From contig OZ241996.1 of assembly GCA_965204535.1 (NCBI GenBank), forward strand, positions 1,184,001 through 1,248,000: a stretch of DNA of 64,000 bases. The letters run 5' to 3'. Shown here one piece after another: positions 1-63,341 of this stretch (positions are counted from its first letter, which is position 1; every line of letters starts with the position of its first letter). This DNA is from a bacterium (lineage in GTDB: Bacteria; UBA8248). The notes below the pieces were generated by a model. The model was not told the DNA's origin. It did no database searches and saw only the letters and a list, made by a program, of their open reading frames with translations. A program made the position numbers and the translations under genes.

Positions 1-469
1 CAGGCGTTCTGAACAGCCCCAAAGGCAAACCGAGTGTTGGAGCAAAGTTGCTGAAATCATTGCTGGGAACAAAATAAGCCTAAGGATAAGTCAGCTTTTG
101 GGCGCTCACCTTTCGGCCCCAAAACCCTGAAAATGTCGGAGATGCTCAATAAGCCCGCCTTTGCTCGTCGGTGAAGAATTTCGAAGATCGGGAACCATTC
201 GCCGCTTGAGGGTCGGTCGGGGTTCTATTGCAGCGCGACCTGTCCCTGCCACTTGACAGATTCCGGTATCGCAATCAGGATATTCTTCGCCACATAACCT
301 ATGGATTGACCTGCTGGCTTGGTCGCCCGCGGAATACAACACCGCTTCCTCGCGGGAAGATGCGGCAACCTGCCATCAATCCTTGAGTAGTGTGGCAAAC
401 GGCCCGAGCAAGCGTCGGGACGACCGAGAGTCATTTGTTCACTCTTTTTGTCATGGGAGAAACACGGAT

Positions 470-1738
470 ATGCTCAAAAACATTCTGTCAATTTTATTGG
501 CAACTACTCTTCTTTTCGCTTGCGGTGGAGGGGGAAGCGGGAAAAACCCTCAGCAGCCTCCTGCAGCCATGCTGCCTCAGCAGCCTCCCGCAGCCATGCT
601 GGGAAACTCTAACCTTCCCAGTGCAACTCGTGTCTATGACTACCTCTACATTCACGGGAGCGGCGAGCCGTTTGAAGGATTTGACGGTACGTACCAAGTA
701 CCGCCAGGCCTCCGGCGCTTCGCGTCCCCGCCGACCGTGCGGATGCGGGCCGGCATGTCCGATCGTGAGACCGCAATCGCTCATTACGCCGTCGCCCTGA
801 TCAACCGCGCACTGCCCTACGATCATCATCTACGGCTTGGCCCGGATTTTCCTGACGACTATGCCCATGAACCCGGCACGTTCTTCCGAGCCGCGCCGAG
901 CGGCGAACTGTTCATAGAGTTGACGGAAGGCCTGCAGAACACCGACGGGGCACCGGGGTTCGCCAACTTGGACGGCACCGCGCAGAGCCGAACCGCCGCC
1001 CAGGTCGGGCTGAAAGCCGAAGAGTTCCGCAATCGGCCGGACTGGCAGGCCGTGTCCGTCGTCGTGCACGAACTCCTGCACGCGCTCGGCTTGGAAGCGC
1101 ACGTGCCCGGTGACACCTACCCGGACTCAAGCATGTTCGACGCATGGTTCCGCCTCGACGGGTCCCTGCCCGACATCGATGCAGCTGCTCTGCAAGTGCT
1201 CTATCTTCGGCTGGGGGCGTTTACGCCTCCCGAGAACCTGTCACCAACGATGCTCGGCGCATGGGATGATGAAAGCACCGATATCACGGGCGTCCTTGGC
1301 CCTGTTTCCTTCGGCGTGCGCCATGCGAACGACGTCAGCGTACCGTTTACCGCCGGACCTGAACCATCAACGCCGCTTGCGGAGGGCGGCTTGTCCGGAA
1401 CAGTAACTTGGCACGGGAAGTTGCTCGGATTGACGCCGGAACTGCGGACTGTGGCGGGAGACAGTGCAATTGGAGTGGACCTGAATACCATGAATGGCAC
1501 CGCCAGCTTTACAAATCTGAAATTGTTTTCTGCCTTAGTCGTACCAACACCTGAAGGGGGAACGATGTGGGGCGACGGCACACTTGATTACGATATCCGC
1601 GTTGGGAGCAATTACCTGTATTCGACCGGCGGTGATGCTGGCGTGGTATCGGGGTCGTTTTACGGCGACGATTACGGCTATGTTGGTGGCACGGTCGAGC
1701 GTTCGGACCTTACAGCCGCGTTTGGAGGAAAACGATAA
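470..1738 (+). CDS. Surface lipoprotein with zinc-metallopeptidase (metzincin-like) domain and C-terminal TbpB-like beta-barrel
   Basis: ATG at 470 gives signal peptide and lipobox LLFA-C followed by GGGGSG; HELLHALGLEAH zinc motif; Gly-rich beta-strand C-terminus (GSFYG..GGTVER..AAFGGKR). Confidence 0.7.
   Translation: MLKNILSILLATTLLFACGGGGSGKNPQQPPAAMLPQQPPAAMLGNSNLPSATRVYDYLYIHGSGEPFEGFDGTYQVPPGLRRFASPPTVRMRAGMSDRETAIAHYAVALINRALPYDHHLRLGPDFPDDYAHEPGTFFRAAPSGELFIELTEGLQNTDGAPGFANLDGTAQSRTAAQVGLKAEEFRNRPDWQAVSVVVHELLHALGLEAHVPGDTYPDSSMFDAWFRLDGSLPDIDAAALQVLYLRLGAFTPPENLSPTMLGAWDDESTDITGVLGPVSFGVRHANDVSVPFTAGPEPSTPLAEGGLSGTVTWHGKLLGLTPELRTVAGDSAIGVDLNTMNGTASFTNLKLFSALVVPTPEGGTMWGDGTLDYDIRVGSNYLYSTGGDAGVVSGSFYGDDYGYVGGTVERSDLTAAFGGKR
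548..601 (+). repeat. 27-bp tandem duplication in CDS (PQQPPAAML x2)
   Basis: cctcagcagcctcc(t/c)gcagccatgctg twice, one mismatch. Confidence 0.9.
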
Positions 1739-2412: not shown

Positions 2413-2769
2413 ATGGATACATCTACCGCGCAAAACAGTTCCGCCGCTTCGGGCGCCGCCGGGATTCTCCGCGACGTTTTCGGCGGTCTGGACTACGGGC
2501 TCAGCTTCCGCCTGTGGGACGGGACGACGCTCTCGGTGGGCCGCGAGGCGCTGGCCATCGAGGTGACGTTCCCCTCGCTCGACGCCTTCAAGCGCGTCAT
2601 GCTGAACCCCAGCGCGGACGCCTTCGCGGAAGCCTATTGCGATTCGGTCATCGACGTCGAGGGCGATCTGTTCGAAGTCATGAAGGTGGCCGACAGCATG
2701 GAGGCGGTCGAATTGGGCACGATTCAGAAATTCAAGATCGCCCTGCGCATCTGGAAACTCGCAGAATGA
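2413..2769 (+). CDS. Stand-alone N-terminal domain of cyclopropane-fatty-acyl-phospholipid synthase family
   Basis: FRLWDG and AEAYCD..IDVEGDL motifs typical of CFA synthase N-domain; gagg RBS before ATG 2413; ATGA overlap with next gene. Confidence 0.7.
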   Translation: MDTSTAQNSSAASGAAGILRDVFGGLDYGLSFRLWDGTTLSVGREALAIEVTFPSLDAFKRVMLNPSADAFAEAYCDSVIDVEGDLFEVMKVADSMEAVELGTIQKFKIALRIWKLAE

Positions 2770-3878
2770 GCGCGCCCGAAGTCATCGTCGTCGGAGGGGG
2801 CCCGGGGGGCAGCACGGCCGCTTGGGAACTCGCGAAGCGCGGCCGCCGCGTCCTCGTGCTCGATGCGGCCACCTTCCCGCGCGTGAAACTCTGCGCCGGC
2901 TGGGTGACGAAGCAGGTGATGGCCGACCTTAAGCTCGACCCGGATGAATATCCCCACACCATACAGCCGTTCCAGAGCGTGTTTGTGGGCTATGACGACA
3001 AGCTGCTCGAGACGAGGTGGAGCGAGCCCGCGAGCTACGGGATCATCAGGAGCCAGTTCGACACCTGGCTCCTGAGGCGCGCGCAGGAAGAGGGCGCAGA
3101 GGTGCGCGAGGGCGCCCGCGTCCGCGGCGTGGAGAAAATGGCGGACGGAATGAGGGTGGATACAGGTAATGAAAAAATAAATGTTCCCGTCGTCATCGGC
3201 GCGGGCGGACACACCTGCCCGGTCGCGAGGGCGTTCGGCGACGTTTCTTCGGAAGAATCGGTCGTCCTCACACAGGAGAGCGAGACGAACGTGGGCGCCG
3301 AGAAGCTCCGCGCCCTGGCGCCGAATTACGGTCTGCCCGAACTGTTCGCCGAGCCCGACTTCAAGGGCTATGCGTGGTATTTCACAAAGGGGGACTTTTT
3401 GAACATCGGCGTGGGCTGCATCGGCAAGAAGCCGAGCGTCCACGAACGCCTCGAAATCCTGCTCGAGAAATTCCGCGAGACGGGCAGGCTGCCCGCCGGG
3501 ATGGAGCTCACGAAATTCCGGGGCCACGCCTATTCGGTCCACCGCACGTATGTCCGGCGGCCCGCGGGCGATGGCTTCGCGCTCATCGGCGACGCCGCAG
3601 GGCTCGCCAAGGATTTCAGCGGAGAGGGTATCGGCCCCGCCGTCCATAGCGCCAGGATGGCGGCCGAGGCCGCGGTTCAGTATCTGGAGACCGGGAAGGG
3701 CCTCGCGGAATACGGCGAGGCGCTTTATGAGAAGTACGGAGGCGGCGGGGAAGGGTTGTTCGATAAATTGATCGATCGTCTTCCCGATAAGGTTCTTTTC
3801 GGCGTGGCGAAGTTCATCTGCGGTAACGCATGGCTCAGACGCCGGCTGGTTCTGGAAGGCGCATTCGGGATCGGATGA
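2766..3878 (+). CDS. Geranylgeranyl-reductase-family FAD/NAD(P)-dependent oxidoreductase
   Basis: VIVVGGGPGGS FAD fold, FPRVKLCAG, R..FD..L, GYAWYF.KG..NIGVG, IGDAAG...FSGEGI. Confidence 0.85.
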   Translation: MSAPEVIVVGGGPGGSTAAWELAKRGRRVLVLDAATFPRVKLCAGWVTKQVMADLKLDPDEYPHTIQPFQSVFVGYDDKLLETRWSEPASYGIIRSQFDTWLLRRAQEEGAEVREGARVRGVEKMADGMRVDTGNEKINVPVVIGAGGHTCPVARAFGDVSSEESVVLTQESETNVGAEKLRALAPNYGLPELFAEPDFKGYAWYFTKGDFLNIGVGCIGKKPSVHERLEILLEKFRETGRLPAGMELTKFRGHAYSVHRTYVRRPAGDGFALIGDAAGLAKDFSGEGIGPAVHSARMAAEAAVQYLETGKGLAEYGEALYEKYGGGGEGLFDKLIDRLPDKVLFGVAKFICGNAWLRRRLVLEGAFGIG

Positions 3879-3897
3879 ACAAAACATTGAGGCGGCC

Positions 3898-4815
3898 ATG
3901 GTAAAAGAGCGGACAAAAGAATTCGACGCCGAGGCGATATCGCACCACTACGACCTCTCCAACGAGTTTTACGAGCAGTTCCTGTGCGAGAACATGCTCT
4001 ACACGTGCGCCTATTACCGCGAACCGGACGGCGATCTCGCCCAGGCGCAGCGCGACAAGATGGACCTCGTCTGCCGGAAGCTCAGGCTCTCGCCCGGCGA
4101 GGATTACCTCGACATCGGCTGCGGGTGGGGTTCGCTGGCGATATGGGCGGCGAAGCACTACGGCGTGAACGCCACCGCCGTCACGCTCTCGCGCGAGCAG
4201 GCGAAATGGGGCCAGGAGTGGGCGCGCCGCGAGGGGGTCGAGGAGAAGTGCGAGATCCACCACATGGATTACCGCGATTTCCCGGAATCCCGGACGTTCA
4301 ACAAGATATCCGCCATCGGCATCATCGAGCACGTCGGCATCGCGAACTACCTGAGCTACTTCTCTTCCGTGAGAAACCGCCTGCGCGACGGGGGCTTGTT
4401 CCTGAACCACGGGATCACGACGAACAAGTTCTGGAAACCCACGAGCCAGAACGAATTCCTGCTGAGAAACGTCTTTCCCAACGGGGAGATGGACAACATC
4501 TCCCACATCCAGGACGTGATGGAGCTCGCGCGCTGGGAGATTCTGGACGTGGAGAATCTGAGGCTCCACTACGCGCGGACGTGCAAGCACTGGTACGAGA
4601 AATTCGAGGAGAACGCCGAGCGCATCAAGGAGCTGGTCGGCGAACGCACCTACCGGATCTACCGCGTCTGGCTGGTATGTTCGTCGAACGCGTTCTTCTG
4701 CAATTCGCTGGGTCTCTACCAGGTACTGGCGCAGAAATACGAGAAAGAATACCGCTTCGACCCGCCGACGCACCGCGAGGATATCTATCGAGCGTTCCTC
4801 AAGCAGGACGCCTGA
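3898..4815 (+). CDS. Cyclopropane-fatty-acyl-phospholipid synthase family SAM methyltransferase (catalytic domain only)
   Basis: ISHHYDLSNEFY, YTCAY, LDIGCGWG, EHVG, VFPNGE, LRLHYART motifs; lacks the usual N-domain. Confidence 0.9.
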   Translation: MVKERTKEFDAEAISHHYDLSNEFYEQFLCENMLYTCAYYREPDGDLAQAQRDKMDLVCRKLRLSPGEDYLDIGCGWGSLAIWAAKHYGVNATAVTLSREQAKWGQEWARREGVEEKCEIHHMDYRDFPESRTFNKISAIGIIEHVGIANYLSYFSSVRNRLRDGGLFLNHGITTNKFWKPTSQNEFLLRNVFPNGEMDNISHIQDVMELARWEILDVENLRLHYARTCKHWYEKFEENAERIKELVGERTYRIYRVWLVCSSNAFFCNSLGLYQVLAQKYEKEYRFDPPTHREDIYRAFLKQDA

Positions 4816-4833: not shown

Positions 4834-4987
4834 GGGGTTGTTGAAAAAGCGTTGATGAACGAGGATTTGAGTGACTTTGTAGGGGCCGCATATATGCGGC
4901 CCTTGTAATGGGCTAAAAATCTGGGTCGCATATATGCGACCCCTACACAAAAGCAGATTTTCTCTCTCCGGATATTTCAACAACCCC
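4834..4987. mobile_element. MITE with 13-bp terminal inverted repeats carrying an inverted GTAG-REP pair
   Basis: ggggttgttgaaa (4834-4846) / tttcaacaacccc (4975-4987); internal gtaggggccgcatatatgcggccc (4879-4902) and gggtcgcatatatgcgacccctac (4923-4946). Confidence 0.75.
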
Positions 4988-5073
4988 CACAAAGGCGTGT
5001 CTATCTTGCTCTTTCGTCGTTCTTGCCAAACCCCTGTTCATCCGACTTATGCAACATCTCCCTCACGCGCGGC

Positions 5074-6066
5074 ATGAGACTGAACGGTTCCGCGCCCACC
5101 CCGCCTTTCCGCCCGGCGTGGTTCTGTCGGGGGCGCCATCTCCAGAGCACATGGGGATATTGTTTGAGAAAACACCCGCGCGTCTCCTGGCGGCGGGAGC
5201 GCTGGGATACGCCCGACGGCGATTTCCTGGACGTCGATTTTCTCGATTCGGATCAACCGGACGCCCCGACGCTGCTCGTGCTGCACGGCCTGGAAGGTTC
5301 CGCCGATTCCCATTACGTGCGAGGTGCTGCGGGGAGGGCGCAATCGCTCGGCTGGCGGGCGCTGGCGATGAACTATCGCTCCTGCAGCGGCGAGCCGAAC
5401 AGGAATCCCAAATTCTACCACTGCGGGGAGACGGGGGACCCGGGATTCGTAGTGGCGCGGATTCTGGAGAGATTCACCGGGCCACTCGTTCTGGCGGGCT
5501 TCTCTCTGGGAGGGAACGTCCTGCTCAAGTGGTTGGGAGAATGCGGTGATGCGGTCTCGCCCCGCATACGTGGGGCCGCCAGTATTTCCCCAAGCTTGGG
5601 GCCCGCCGCGTGCGCGAAAGTGCTCGATTCCTTGACGGGTTATTTCTACAAATGGCATCTGCTGAGCAGCGTGAAGGAAAAAGCGGAGCGTTTCTCGAAA
5701 ATGCACCCCGGCCTCATCGACATCGAGGGGGTGAGGCGTGCGCGGACGTTCCACCGCTTCGACCGCCTCGTCATCGCGCCGCTCTATGGGTTCCGGGACG
5801 AGCTGGATTATTACGAGCAGGCGGACGCCTCACCCTATCTGCCCCGAATCCAAGTGAAGACGCTCATTCTCTCCGCCGAGAACGACCCCATCGTGCCGCC
5901 CCACGTGTTTCCCCGTCGAGAAATCGGGGAATCCGAGTGGCTGAGCGGCGTCTTGCTGAAAAGCGGCGGGCACGTGGGCTTCGTGTCGGGCGGCAACCCC
6001 CGCGCGCCGGTCTACTGGGCCGAGGAGCGGGCGTTCGAGTTTCTCGATGATTGTCTCAAAAGCTGA
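5074..6066 (+). CDS. YheT-family alpha/beta hydrolase
   Basis: HLQS, TPDGDFLD, LHGLEGS..S.Y, GFSLGGN nucleophile elbow, NDP, GGHVGF; start chosen at ATG 5074. Confidence 0.85.
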   Translation: MRLNGSAPTPPFRPAWFCRGRHLQSTWGYCLRKHPRVSWRRERWDTPDGDFLDVDFLDSDQPDAPTLLVLHGLEGSADSHYVRGAAGRAQSLGWRALAMNYRSCSGEPNRNPKFYHCGETGDPGFVVARILERFTGPLVLAGFSLGGNVLLKWLGECGDAVSPRIRGAASISPSLGPAACAKVLDSLTGYFYKWHLLSSVKEKAERFSKMHPGLIDIEGVRRARTFHRFDRLVIAPLYGFRDELDYYEQADASPYLPRIQVKTLILSAENDPIVPPHVFPRREIGESEWLSGVLLKSGGHVGFVSGGNPRAPVYWAEERAFEFLDDCLKS

Positions 6067-6140: not shown

Positions 6141-6271
6141 CCCCCCCCTCCCCCTTGTCAGGGGGTAAAAAAAGAAAGCCCCCCTTGCCGAAGGCAAGAA
6201 AAAACAAAAGCCCCTCTACCGGCGGCGGGCGTCGCCTTTTCATACCCCCCTGACAAGGGGGGTAGGGGGGG
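6141..6271. repeat. Inverted pair of C/G-run palindromic repeats (ccccttgtcagggg type)
   Basis: 6141-6166 is the near reverse complement of 6245-6271; a third copy is split by the IS. Confidence 0.75.
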
Positions 6272-6316: not shown

Positions 6317-7829
6317 GGGCCTGTTGAAAAACCCCTGGTTTTGTGATCGTATGGAGTTATCCCCCCTCGCCCGAGATGGGAGATTCCCCGATGTTGGACC
6401 GCAAGAGGCGCGGGCAGATGGAATTGTTCGTGGCCGGTTCGCTGGAGCAGTTGATTCCCGAAGATTACATATTGTTCCGGGTGAACCGCGTACTGGATTT
6501 GAGCTGGCTGCGCGAGGAAGTGGCGGGGTGCTATTGCGCGGACAACGGTCGACCGGGGATCGACCCGGAAGTGGTGGTGCGGTTGATGCTGGCGGGCCTG
6601 CTGCTGGGCCACGTGCACGACCGGCATCTGCTTCGCGAGGCGCAGGTGAACCTGGCGATCCGGTGGTTCATCGGTTACGAGCTGCACGAGGAGTTGCCGG
6701 ATCATTCAAGCCTGACGCGGATTCGCCAGCGCTGGGGGGAGGCGCGGTTCAAGGAGATATTGCGCCGCACGGTTCAGGCGTGCCTGGAGGCGCAGGTGGC
6801 GAAGGGGGAAGTGGTTCACATGGACGCGTCTTTGATACGTGCGGACGTGAGCTGGGAGAGTCTGGCGGCGCGCCACGCGGAGAAGGTGGTGCGGGAGAAC
6901 GACTCGGCGGATGAGACGGGGAAGAAGGGCGGCGGCGGTTCGGGTCCGGTGAGCCGAACGGACCCCGACGCTCGCCTGGCGCGCAAGAGCGCTCGGGCGG
7001 GGTTCGAGCCGAGCTACAAGCACCACGCGGTGGTGGACGACGAGCGGGGCGTTGTCCTCGACGTAGAGGTGACGGAGGGGACGTTGAACGAGCGGGAGAT
7101 GATGGAGCCGCAGCTGGATGCGGTTTGCGAGCTCACGGGTCGCGCGCCCGCGGTGGTGACGGCGGATAGTGGTTATGCGTATTCGAAGGTGTATGCGGGA
7201 TTGGAGCGTCGGGGGGTGGACGCGGTGATTCCGGCGAAGAAGGAGCCTTCCCAGAGCCGTGTTCCGCTGCAGTTGTTCCGCTACGACGAGCGGCGCAAGG
7301 TGGTGAAGTGTCCGGGCGGCAAGACGCTGCGTCCCCGGAAGGAGACGGAGCGGGGGCGCTACTATGGTTCGAGGACGCGCGATTGCGCGGGCTGCGCGCT
7401 GAGGTCGGATTGTCTTCCCAAGTCGCACACGAGCAGGACGGTGCTGATTCCGCATGAATATCCGGCGCTGTTGCGCGCGCGCCGCCGCCACGCGCGCCGG
7501 GGGGAGGAGGAGGGCCGGCTGTGGCGCCGCCACATGTCGCGTTCGGAGGGTTACCACGGCGAGGCGAAGAGTCGGCACGGACTGGGGCGGGCGGTGCGCC
7601 GGGGCCTTGCGAACATGAGGATCCAGGCCTACCTGACGGCGACTGCGGTGAACCTCAAGCGGCTGGCCGCCGCTTTTGCGGCGGGTATATTCGCTCTGTG
7701 GAGGGCCTGCGCCGCCCGGAGACGCCGAATGAGCGCATATCGCGGCCTCACGCGCCGATTGGGCTTCCTCTCCCAGGCCGCGTGAGCCGCCATACATCCC
7801 GCTTCAAAACGGGGTTTTTCAACAGCCCC
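6317..7829 (+). mobile_element. IS1182-family insertion sequence, 1513 bp
   Basis: 19-bp IRs gggcctgttgaaaaacccc / ggggtttttcaacagcccc (1 mismatch); 3-bp direct repeat GTC at 6314-6316 and 7830-7832. Confidence 0.9.
6391..7785 (+). CDS. IS1182-family DDE transposase
   Basis: GRPGIDP, PDHSSLTRIRQR, MDASLIRA, TDPDA, ADSGY, EAK..HGL.RA..RGL; open frame, ggag RBS before ATG 6391. Confidence 0.92.
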   Translation: MLDRKRRGQMELFVAGSLEQLIPEDYILFRVNRVLDLSWLREEVAGCYCADNGRPGIDPEVVVRLMLAGLLLGHVHDRHLLREAQVNLAIRWFIGYELHEELPDHSSLTRIRQRWGEARFKEILRRTVQACLEAQVAKGEVVHMDASLIRADVSWESLAARHAEKVVRENDSADETGKKGGGGSGPVSRTDPDARLARKSARAGFEPSYKHHAVVDDERGVVLDVEVTEGTLNEREMMEPQLDAVCELTGRAPAVVTADSGYAYSKVYAGLERRGVDAVIPAKKEPSQSRVPLQLFRYDERRKVVKCPGGKTLRPRKETERGRYYGSRTRDCAGCALRSDCLPKSHTSRTVLIPHEYPALLRARRRHARRGEEEGRLWRRHMSRSEGYHGEAKSRHGLGRAVRRGLANMRIQAYLTATAVNLKRLAAAFAAGIFALWRACAARRRRMSAYRGLTRRLGFLSQAA

Positions 7830-61910: not shown

Positions 61911-63341
61911 TTGTTCAAGAATGGGAGAAAGAACTTGTCTACGGCGCCGGAGAAGCCAAGGCTCGCGATTCACAGAAAATCTGAAAGGAAGTTGCAGTGG
62001 GAGACAATCTTCGTCATCGGGATGATTCACCTGCTCGCCCTGATGGCTTTCGACCTGGATTATTTCAGCGTTTCCGGTCTCGTCGTGGGAATCGTGATGT
62101 ATTTCGTCGCCGGTATGGTGGGCGTAACGATGTCCTACCACAGACTCCTGACGCACAGGAGTTTCCAGACGTATAAGCCGGTGGAGTATTTCCTGACTTT
62201 CTGCGCCTGTCAGGCGCTTCAGAGCGGCCCAATCGAGTGGGTGGCGATGCACCGCATTCACCACAAGGAATCGGACGAGGAGCCGGATCCGCATTCCCCG
62301 CTCGTGAATTTCCTGTGGGCGCACGCCGGATGGCTTTTCGTCAGCCTGCCGGACGCGCACACCTACAATGAGTATTCGCGCTTCGCCAAGGATTTACACC
62401 GCGACAAGTGGCAGCGATTTTTCGACATGTTCTTTTTCCCCATCTATGTCTTGACCGCGGTGGCCATTTACTTCGCCGGGGAGGTGTACGGCGGCCTGGG
62501 CATGTCCTGGCTCGTCTGGGGCGTATTCGTGCGAACGGTCGTTTTGTGGCACTGCACCTGGGCGGTGAATTCGGTGACGCACACCTTCGGCTACCGCAAC
62601 TACAATACGGATGAGGAGAGCACCAACAACTGGCTCGTCGCAATTTTCTCTTTCGGCGAGGGCTGGCACAACAACCACCATGCGGACCAGCGCTCGGCCG
62701 CTCACGGCCAGCGATGGTTCGAGGTGGACATCACCTACCGGCTTATCAAGATCATGGAACTCTTTGGCCTTGTCTGGGGGGTGAGAGAGCCGAGTCAGCG
62801 CATCGTGGCGAAAAGACTCGACATCATGGTGGATGAAGAGGGCTTGCGCGCCTCCGAGGCGAGAAGGTTGGATACAGAGGACGCCCGCGCCGAAGTACTC
62901 CACACGATGACCGACCCCACGATGCCGCTGGAAGTCCCCCGTATGCCCTCGCTGACCGAAGCAAGCGAGGCGGCGATGAAATCGGCCCGAAAGGCCATGG
63001 AGTCGGTCAACACGGCGCTCGCGCACGCCTCTCACGCGCTTCGACACAAAGAGGATAATGCCGACCAGGCCGTTCGCCAGGTGCTGGAAAAGGGCAAGGA
63101 TACGGCGATGGCGGCCATCGAGCAGGCCAAGTACGCCGCGGCGGAAGCCGCGGAGTTCTCCGCACAGGCGAGCGCTTTTCTGGCGGATGCGAAAGACAAG
63201 GCTACGGAATCCGCCCATCAGGCGGCTGAAAGAGCGAAGTCGCTCGCACAGGAAGCAAGCGATGCGGCTTCGAAAGCCGCCGATGAAATTGCAGCCGCGT
63301 TCAAGGGAATCGACAGGCCGGTCATCACTTCCGCGATCTAA
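61911..63341 (+). CDS. Membrane fatty-acid desaturase (Delta-9 OLE1/DesC-like) with Ala-rich C-terminal extension
   Basis: His boxes HRLLTH, HRIHH, HNNHH; DPHSP, NSVTH.FG; about 170-aa helical tail. Confidence 0.9.
   Translation: MFKNGRKNLSTAPEKPRLAIHRKSERKLQWETIFVIGMIHLLALMAFDLDYFSVSGLVVGIVMYFVAGMVGVTMSYHRLLTHRSFQTYKPVEYFLTFCACQALQSGPIEWVAMHRIHHKESDEEPDPHSPLVNFLWAHAGWLFVSLPDAHTYNEYSRFAKDLHRDKWQRFFDMFFFPIYVLTAVAIYFAGEVYGGLGMSWLVWGVFVRTVVLWHCTWAVNSVTHTFGYRNYNTDEESTNNWLVAIFSFGEGWHNNHHADQRSAAHGQRWFEVDITYRLIKIMELFGLVWGVREPSQRIVAKRLDIMVDEEGLRASEARRLDTEDARAEVLHTMTDPTMPLEVPRMPSLTEASEAAMKSARKAMESVNTALAHASHALRHKEDNADQAVRQVLEKGKDTAMAAIEQAKYAAAEAAEFSAQASAFLADAKDKATESAHQAAERAKSLAQEASDAASKAADEIAAAFKGIDRPVITSAI

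Follow-up and report, generated by a model that had tools for sequence, protein, structure and literature searches.

In the window (the whole 64,000-nucleotide stretch of DNA analysed here), we found a three-gene cluster in which a lipid methylase of the cyclopropane fatty acid (CFA) synthase family is encoded by two genes that flank the gene of a TmpA-type flavin reductase, and this layout is conserved. The split layout around the reductase is what is new; the tmpBA-type pathway is already known, and the chemistry of the split cluster itself is probably not new. Because the three genes co-occur and their split order is conserved, the best reading of the sequences (probability of roughly 0.6) is a methylase-reductase route to methyl-branched lipids, in which the split methylase and the TmpA-type reductase would convert unsaturated membrane fatty acids to mid-chain methyl-branched ones. 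The activity of E. coli Cfa is reported to be strongly reduced by a split at the linker or by linker changes (PMC11387697, citing Hari 2018), yet here, to our surprise, the split is fixed across distant groups. It was also surprising that the N-domain is coupled to the reductase and not to its own catalytic half. The cluster is a natural counter-example to the need of a CFA synthase for linked domains and is therefore a route to study lipid delivery by the N-domain. A search of the open-access literature returned nothing on the split form or on DUF7884, and did return the 2021 tmp paper.

A methylase in two genes around a reductase gene

All coordinates, sizes and junctions given in the original prediction were borne out (Table 1): the 118-aa N-domain gene stops and the 370-aa reductase gene starts in a shared ATGA at 2766-2769, and a gap of 19 bp separates the latter from the 305-aa catalytic gene. 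A sigma-70-like promoter was not detected. The two methylase proteins part in the interdomain linker: they lack about 18 residues that the closest intact relatives (sampled from plasmid records and long fusions only) have there, and the domain cores are complete.

Table 1 Position of the split methylase cluster and other features in the window
Feature	Position	Strand	Remarks
CFA-synthase N-domain gene	2413-2769	+	118 aa; PF25371/DUF7884
TmpA-clade FAD reductase, geranylgeranyl-reductase family	2766-3878	+	370 aa; TIGR02032
SAM-dependent catalytic domain, CFA-synthase family	3898-4815	+	305 aa; PF02353
Alpha/beta hydrolase	5023-6066	+	PF00561; presumably YheT-like
Transposase-like ORF	6343-7785	+	480 aa; downstream of hydrolase; presumably IS1182/IS5-like
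Desaturase	61911-63341	+	PF00487, E 2e-18
Lipoprotein-like ORF	383-1738	+	Short internal repeat, zinc-protease-like HELLH motif

A scan of species-representative genomes yielded 36 related loci, whose record titles name Nitrospinota, Nitrospinaceae, Tectomicrobia, Binatia and Deltaproteobacteria. The order of N-domain, reductase and catalytic domain was the same in 34 of them, and the remaining two start inside the reductase gene at a contig end. Thus, the split order, which the original prediction had proposed to check in relatives, is conserved and is not unique to one assembly. The 4-nt overlap of stop and start between the N-domain and reductase genes was present in 38 of 44 split loci, a count made without two duplicates and without L134, whose N-domain gene has a frameshift (sequencing error or decay). 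In two other genomes the reductase gene has an internal stop codon, which may likewise be error or decay (L022 of G041, and G010). Among 51 genomes of the window's phylum, 41 had the reductase; every one of these also had the methylase, and all but one (40) had the N-domain. The other ten genomes had none of the three genes. The single N-domain miss was a genome of 67% completeness whose contig begins in the reductase gene. These 41 carriers are not independent, because all come from one family.

The junctions were also covered by independent sequence. Matches were listed for 23 runs, comprising 15 sponge metagenome runs (4 studies), one coral run and seven runs of coded organisms, and the contigs of one sponge DNA run from a different study spanned both gene junctions free of gaps. 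The gene order in 34/36 related loci and these independent contigs rule out an assembly artefact or a frameshift. Sponge metatranscriptome contigs of about 96% identity lay over 2547-2837 and 3625-4027, that is, over both junctions. They are consistent with unspliced transcription of the operon in a closely related organism; both RNA runs come from one study, and such contigs cannot prove a single transcript and may reflect DNA carry-over. Their cover leaves out the downstream hydrolase gene and, in one run, part of the reductase gene. The cluster is not sponge-specific, since the record titles of several relatives indicate seawater or groundwater. We also considered the reductase gene as an intron-like insert whose removal would rejoin the two halves. 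This was rejected: the N-domain and catalytic genes are in the same frame in the window and in only 18/44 split loci, and no contig joint ran from where the N-domain gene ends straight into the catalytic gene.

The split layout recurs in Binatia. In a sample of 81 genomes from the class of a Binatia genome, 19 had a reductase match, and 13 of the 15 full-length split-type reductases were flanked by both methylase halves and two by neither. The latter pair, L129 (1333-2583) and L130, are split-type reductases without either methylase half nearby, and the convergent neighbour of the L129 reductase resembles a di-iron (acyl-ACP desaturase-like) protein by eye. More distant orphan reductases were L100, L101 and L139. 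When proteins of 55-207 aa were searched for free N-domains, 1017 of the 7994 scored had E <= 0.001. The named proteins and cluster members among the best 120 of these include Rokubacteria/NC10 (assigned by protein names only) and Binatia, and they are mostly 107-130 aa long. Free DUF7884 clusters occur in Nitrospinota and Methylomirabilota (Atlas). Plasmids had no TmpA-clade gene and gave distant GGR/FixC matches only. A search for fused reductase-methylase proteins gave a reductase match in 3 of the 120 long proteins listed, and we set all three aside: one comes from a plant and its match is trivial, P0262 looks frameshift-ridden and P0303 is a lone TmpA-TmpB-type record. No clean three-part fusion of the split lineage was among these 120 proteins. 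In P0303 (824 aa), one reading frame joins a TmpA-type reductase, at the front, to an intact TmpB-type methylase; as a single record, it may be a sequencing artefact.

Family membership of the three proteins

The two methylase halves matched consecutive parts of one model. Among NCBIfam models, the catalytic domain matched the CfaB model NF040703 best (positions 97-393; 318 bits, below the 650 cut-off), and the 118-aa protein matched positions 7-82 of this model (E 6e-7). The score against NF008686 was also below cut-off, and the match of the catalytic domain to CMAS PF02353 had E 2e-86. The 118-aa protein scored 33.7 bits against PF25371/DUF7884 (cut-off 27). Its AlphaFold2 model had a pLDDT of 85.5, and the best Foldseek rows for this model were CFA synthases, at E 1e-3 to 6e-3 and none under 1e-3. 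Superposed on residues 5-86 of the Aquifex CFA synthase, the model gave Z 6.7 with an rmsd of 3.3 over 79 aligned residues, tied with Z 6.2 for SCP2-like lipid carriers. A complex prediction for the N-domain and the reductase returned a score of 0.00 ("no answer"), which is uninformative either way.

The catalytic domain was most similar to uncharacterised intact proteins of Methylophaga (47% identity) and Ralstonia (45%), which have no annotated reductase gene adjoining them, followed by BfaB-like proteins (43%), TmpB stand-ins (39%) and E. coli Cfa (36%). The N-domain profile scored 63 and 58 bits on the Methylophaga and Ralstonia relatives, respectively, versus 20-37 on TmpB types. In a 42-row methylase tree, built without Desulfobacter TmpB, CfaB and UfaM, the split enzymes formed one clade (100/99), which another 100/99 branch put on the side of the BfaB-like proteins, apart from TmpB and E. 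coli Cfa (itself a long branch); the BfaB-like labels are based on a neighbouring BfaA-like gene. Forcing the split enzymes and TmpB together cost 22.8 log units, with a borderline p-AU of 0.049. Both methylase halves thus appear closer to the BfaB-like/other CFA branch than to the Marinobacter-type TmpB, at borderline support. By eye, Desulfobacter TmpB is nearer to E. coli Cfa than to Marinobacter TmpB, and for this reason TmpA seems to have been paired with at least three methylase lineages.

The reductase was placed in the TmpA clade by sequence kinship. We scanned metagenomes for TmpA motifs and obtained 56 TmpA loci. L071 (Marinobacter) and L056 (Thiohalospira), close copies by eye, served as stand-ins for the characterised TmpA and TmpB. 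The window reductase had 38-39% identity over its full length to the TmpA stand-ins (E 7e-70 and 2e-65) and 30-32% to BchP and Rhodococcus GGR. In a 42-row tree the split-locus reductases formed a 100/100 clade nested with intact-operon TmpA in a clade supported at 97/93; each of the 32 sampled members of this larger clade came from a locus with a CFA-type methylase. These results uphold the kinship to the geranylgeranyl-reductase (GGR)-like TmpA that had been suggested earlier. The reductase scored 168 bits against TIGR02032, the geranylgeranyl reductase family (cut-off 158.8), and stayed below the BchP, MenJ and archaeal equivalog cut-offs. It keeps the motifs GxGxxG, Cys43, RxxFD, GYxWxF and GD, with Thr as the final Pro of YxWxF(P). 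Across 36 family members the GGR-family motifs were invariant or nearly so, and the FAD motifs and the cysteine, which is described as essential in archaeal GGR (PMC10821996), were invariant.

Since the reductase groups with TmpA and the methylase does not group with the Marinobacter-type TmpB, the cluster can be described as a mosaic variant. The layout probably arose when a tmpA-type gene landed in the linker stretch of an intact methylase gene that was not of the Marinobacter TmpB type.

The bicarbonate ligands of E. coli Cfa, given as Glu239, His266 and Tyr317 (PMC11387697), align to E144, H171 and Y225 in the window; all are kept, as they are in 49/50 other split sequences. The original prediction had aligned RMFTYYL of E. 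coli Cfa with RIYRVWL here and had taken the former to hold a bicarbonate-site Tyr. The alignment stood and the label fell, since the true ligand, Y317, is conserved as Y225. W258 in RIYRVWL aligns to E. coli Y350, which is inside the helix E341-A361 described at the interface of the N- and C-domains (PMC11387697). It is paired with Tyr at 255 (Trp in others) in 33/33 Nitrospinota-branch sequences, and the usual W/Y pair was found in 17/18 other split members and 65/67 intact enzymes. Tyr-to-Trp was therefore rejected as a marker of mechanism: the residue is not a bicarbonate ligand, a reciprocal Trp-to-Tyr change lies three residues earlier, and the change is branch-specific and absent from the Binatia members of the split family. 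From the alignment, W258/Y255 looks like a compensated swap rather than altered chemistry. We know of no residue that separates methylene-forming from cyclopropane-forming enzymes.

Proposed pathway and competing readings

The closest known system is tmpBA ('ten-methyl palmitate'), reported from Marinobacter hydrocarbonoclasticus, Thiohalospira halophila, Desulfobacter and Desulfobacula (PMC7791843). According to that source, E. coli carrying TmpB from 4/5 operons formed 10-methylene fatty acids, 10-methyl-16:0 is produced by the donor organisms themselves, and the GGR-like flavoprotein TmpA showed no activity in either E. coli or yeast; because of this inactivity, the role of TmpA is assigned from gene context only. 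The window shares with tmpBA a CFA-family methylase adjoining a TmpA-type flavoprotein and an intact bicarbonate site. It differs in having two methylase genes flanking the reductase gene instead of one intact tmpB upstream of tmpA, and its methylase appears to fall outside the Marinobacter/Thiohalospira-type TmpB by the 100/99 branch and the N-domain scores, a placement for which p-AU was only 0.049 and the Desulfobacter type was unsampled. The bfaAB genes (tmsAB) of Actinomycetota, a 10-methylstearate system, resemble the window in the methylase, which lies on the BfaB-like side of the tree at 43% identity and has NH-x-IT and FP-x-GE style motifs in common by eye. In contrast, BfaA is an unrelated FAD oxidoreductase, whereas the neighbour in the window is of the GGR family, and BfaB is one chain. 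No BfaA-like gene was found in the locus, and elsewhere in the genome there was one weak partial match (E 4e-6 over 173 aa). Cfa enzymes (E. coli 6BQC, Aquifex 7QOS, Lactobacillus 5Z9O and the Pseudomonas CfaB model) share both domains, the SAM site and the bicarbonate ligands with the split proteins, but form one two-domain chain without a reductase partner, whereas the window has separate domain genes. Mycolic-acid methyltransferases (CmaA, MmaA, UmaA) are likewise stand-alone catalytic domains of about 290-300 aa (E 1e-28 to 1e-34); they are described as having no N-domain at all, whereas the window keeps it as a gene of its own.

For the split cluster, we infer substrate, product, protein association and electron donor as follows. 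Judging from CFA synthase structures, the separate N-domain would dock back onto the catalytic domain at the membrane and hold out to it the acyl chain of a phospholipid, one that contains a cis double bond. The catalytic domain, with its active-site residues in place, would methylate the alkene from SAM, and proton removal by the bound bicarbonate would then leave an exo-methylene, as for BfaB and TmpB. The FAD reductase would in turn convert this methylene into a methyl group, drawing on an electron donor encoded outside the locus.

Alternatively, the halves could form an ordinary cyclopropane fatty acid synthase with a reductase that is merely co-regulated and acts on another substrate, for example an isoprenoid chain. 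The CfaB model as best NCBIfam match, albeit below cut-off, and the existence of orphan reductases of the same clade (L129 and L130, and the more distant L100, L101 and L139) speak for it. So does gene content: the catalytic gene was the only full-length CFA-type gene found in the genome, and a second CFA-type gene at E <= 1e-40 was present in only 1/41 carriers, so that the other 40 would have no other source of cyclopropane lipids. We nevertheless regard this reading as unlikely, given the tight co-occurrence and gene overlap with a TmpA-clade reductase. A CFA-type gene also lies directly upstream in 54/56 TmpA loci, a motif-selected set that describes TmpA and not the split form, and the Desulfobacter TmpB, near to E. 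coli Cfa by eye, is still reported to yield methylene products. The same methyl-branched product might instead be reached through an in-chain methyl alkene, the reductase then saturating a prenyl-like double bond, which is the normal job of its family. A precedent for the first step is UfaM, described as a SAM-dependent fatty acyl methylase that turns cis-vaccenate into 11-methyl-12-trans-18:1 (PMC7380195). The closest solved relative of the reductase is the archaeal digeranylgeranylglycerophospholipid reductase 3oz2 (E 2e-22), and the methylase lineage appears distinct from the tested TmpB. Both known methylase-reductase pairings, bfa and tmp, are however reported to pass through methylene, and a kinship of the methylase to UfaM is hypothetical, so we hold this route to be quite unlikely.

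Another alternative concerns the substrate, which could be something other than a membrane phospholipid acyl chain, such as an acyl-ACP, an acyl-CoA, an ether lipid or another carrier-bound chain; the N-domain could have been released because the substrate differs in this way. Mycobacterial mycolate methyltransferases without an N-domain are described as acting outside the plasma membrane (PMC11387697), the modelled N-domain is as SCP2-like as it is CFA-like, and a hydrolase gene commonly follows the cluster. Against this, the N-domain gene is retained with the catalytic domain in 40/41 genomes, and in two database records a desaturase gene comes after the methylase, and we consider a different substrate very improbable. 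The most far-reaching version of the methylene route is doubtful as a whole. In it, the N-domain would be more than half a methylase: produced along with the reductase, it would act as an SCP2-like shuttle within a complex of all three proteins, handing the methylene lipid made by the methylase on to the reductase. The cluster would be a third independent TmpA-CFA pairing and, in sponge symbionts, a part-source of the mid-chain methyl fatty acids of sponges.

Likely producers of methyl-branched lipids and neighbouring genes

With the split cluster, uncultured Nitrospinota-related bacteria, Binatia and Rokubacteria/NC10, the last by protein names only, join the likely producers of mid-chain methyl fatty acids. 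This bears on the use of mid-chain methyl lipids as biomarkers and on their source in high-microbial-abundance sponges. Mid-chain methyl fatty acids are reported to make up at least 20% of the fatty acids in five demosponges, with the producer unsettled (PMC7840048), and the split cluster is a candidate part-source of them. Ca. Methylomirabilis is known for 10-methyl-16:0 (PMC6581649). The split loci also add fresh TmpA-clade reductases beside the published ones, described as inactive, and explain some 'short' CFA synthases in databases, whose N-domain is annotated as hypothetical two genes upstream.

A Delta-9-type desaturase at 61911 had been put forward as a source of substrate. The ORF is real and is the sole desaturase that its own sequence finds in the genome; it does not belong to the locus, being 57 kb away and having no match in L001-L036. 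It could still supply the substrate of the methylase. Past the PF00487 domain it has an alanine-rich C-terminal extension of about 170 aa. In two error-ridden database records, P0244 and P0262, a split-type methylase reads on, in a frameshift-like manner, into a fatty acid desaturase, a hint that a desaturase gene adjoins the split cluster in some other lineage.

The alpha/beta hydrolase gene comes after the cluster in 27/36 loci, and many relatives have no more than about 25 bases between it and the methylase stop codon; it is absent from this position in the four Binatia/Deltaproteobacteria loci. It may encode a lipid esterase linked to the operon in the window's branch. Between the methylase and hydrolase genes, at 4878-4947, lie two 25-nt inverted palindromic arms beginning GTAG, which we take to be REP-like. 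They showed very high depth in metagenome contigs, and a second repeat lies at about 6141-6270. The lipoprotein-like ORF upstream of the cluster had four paralogous matches elsewhere in the genome.
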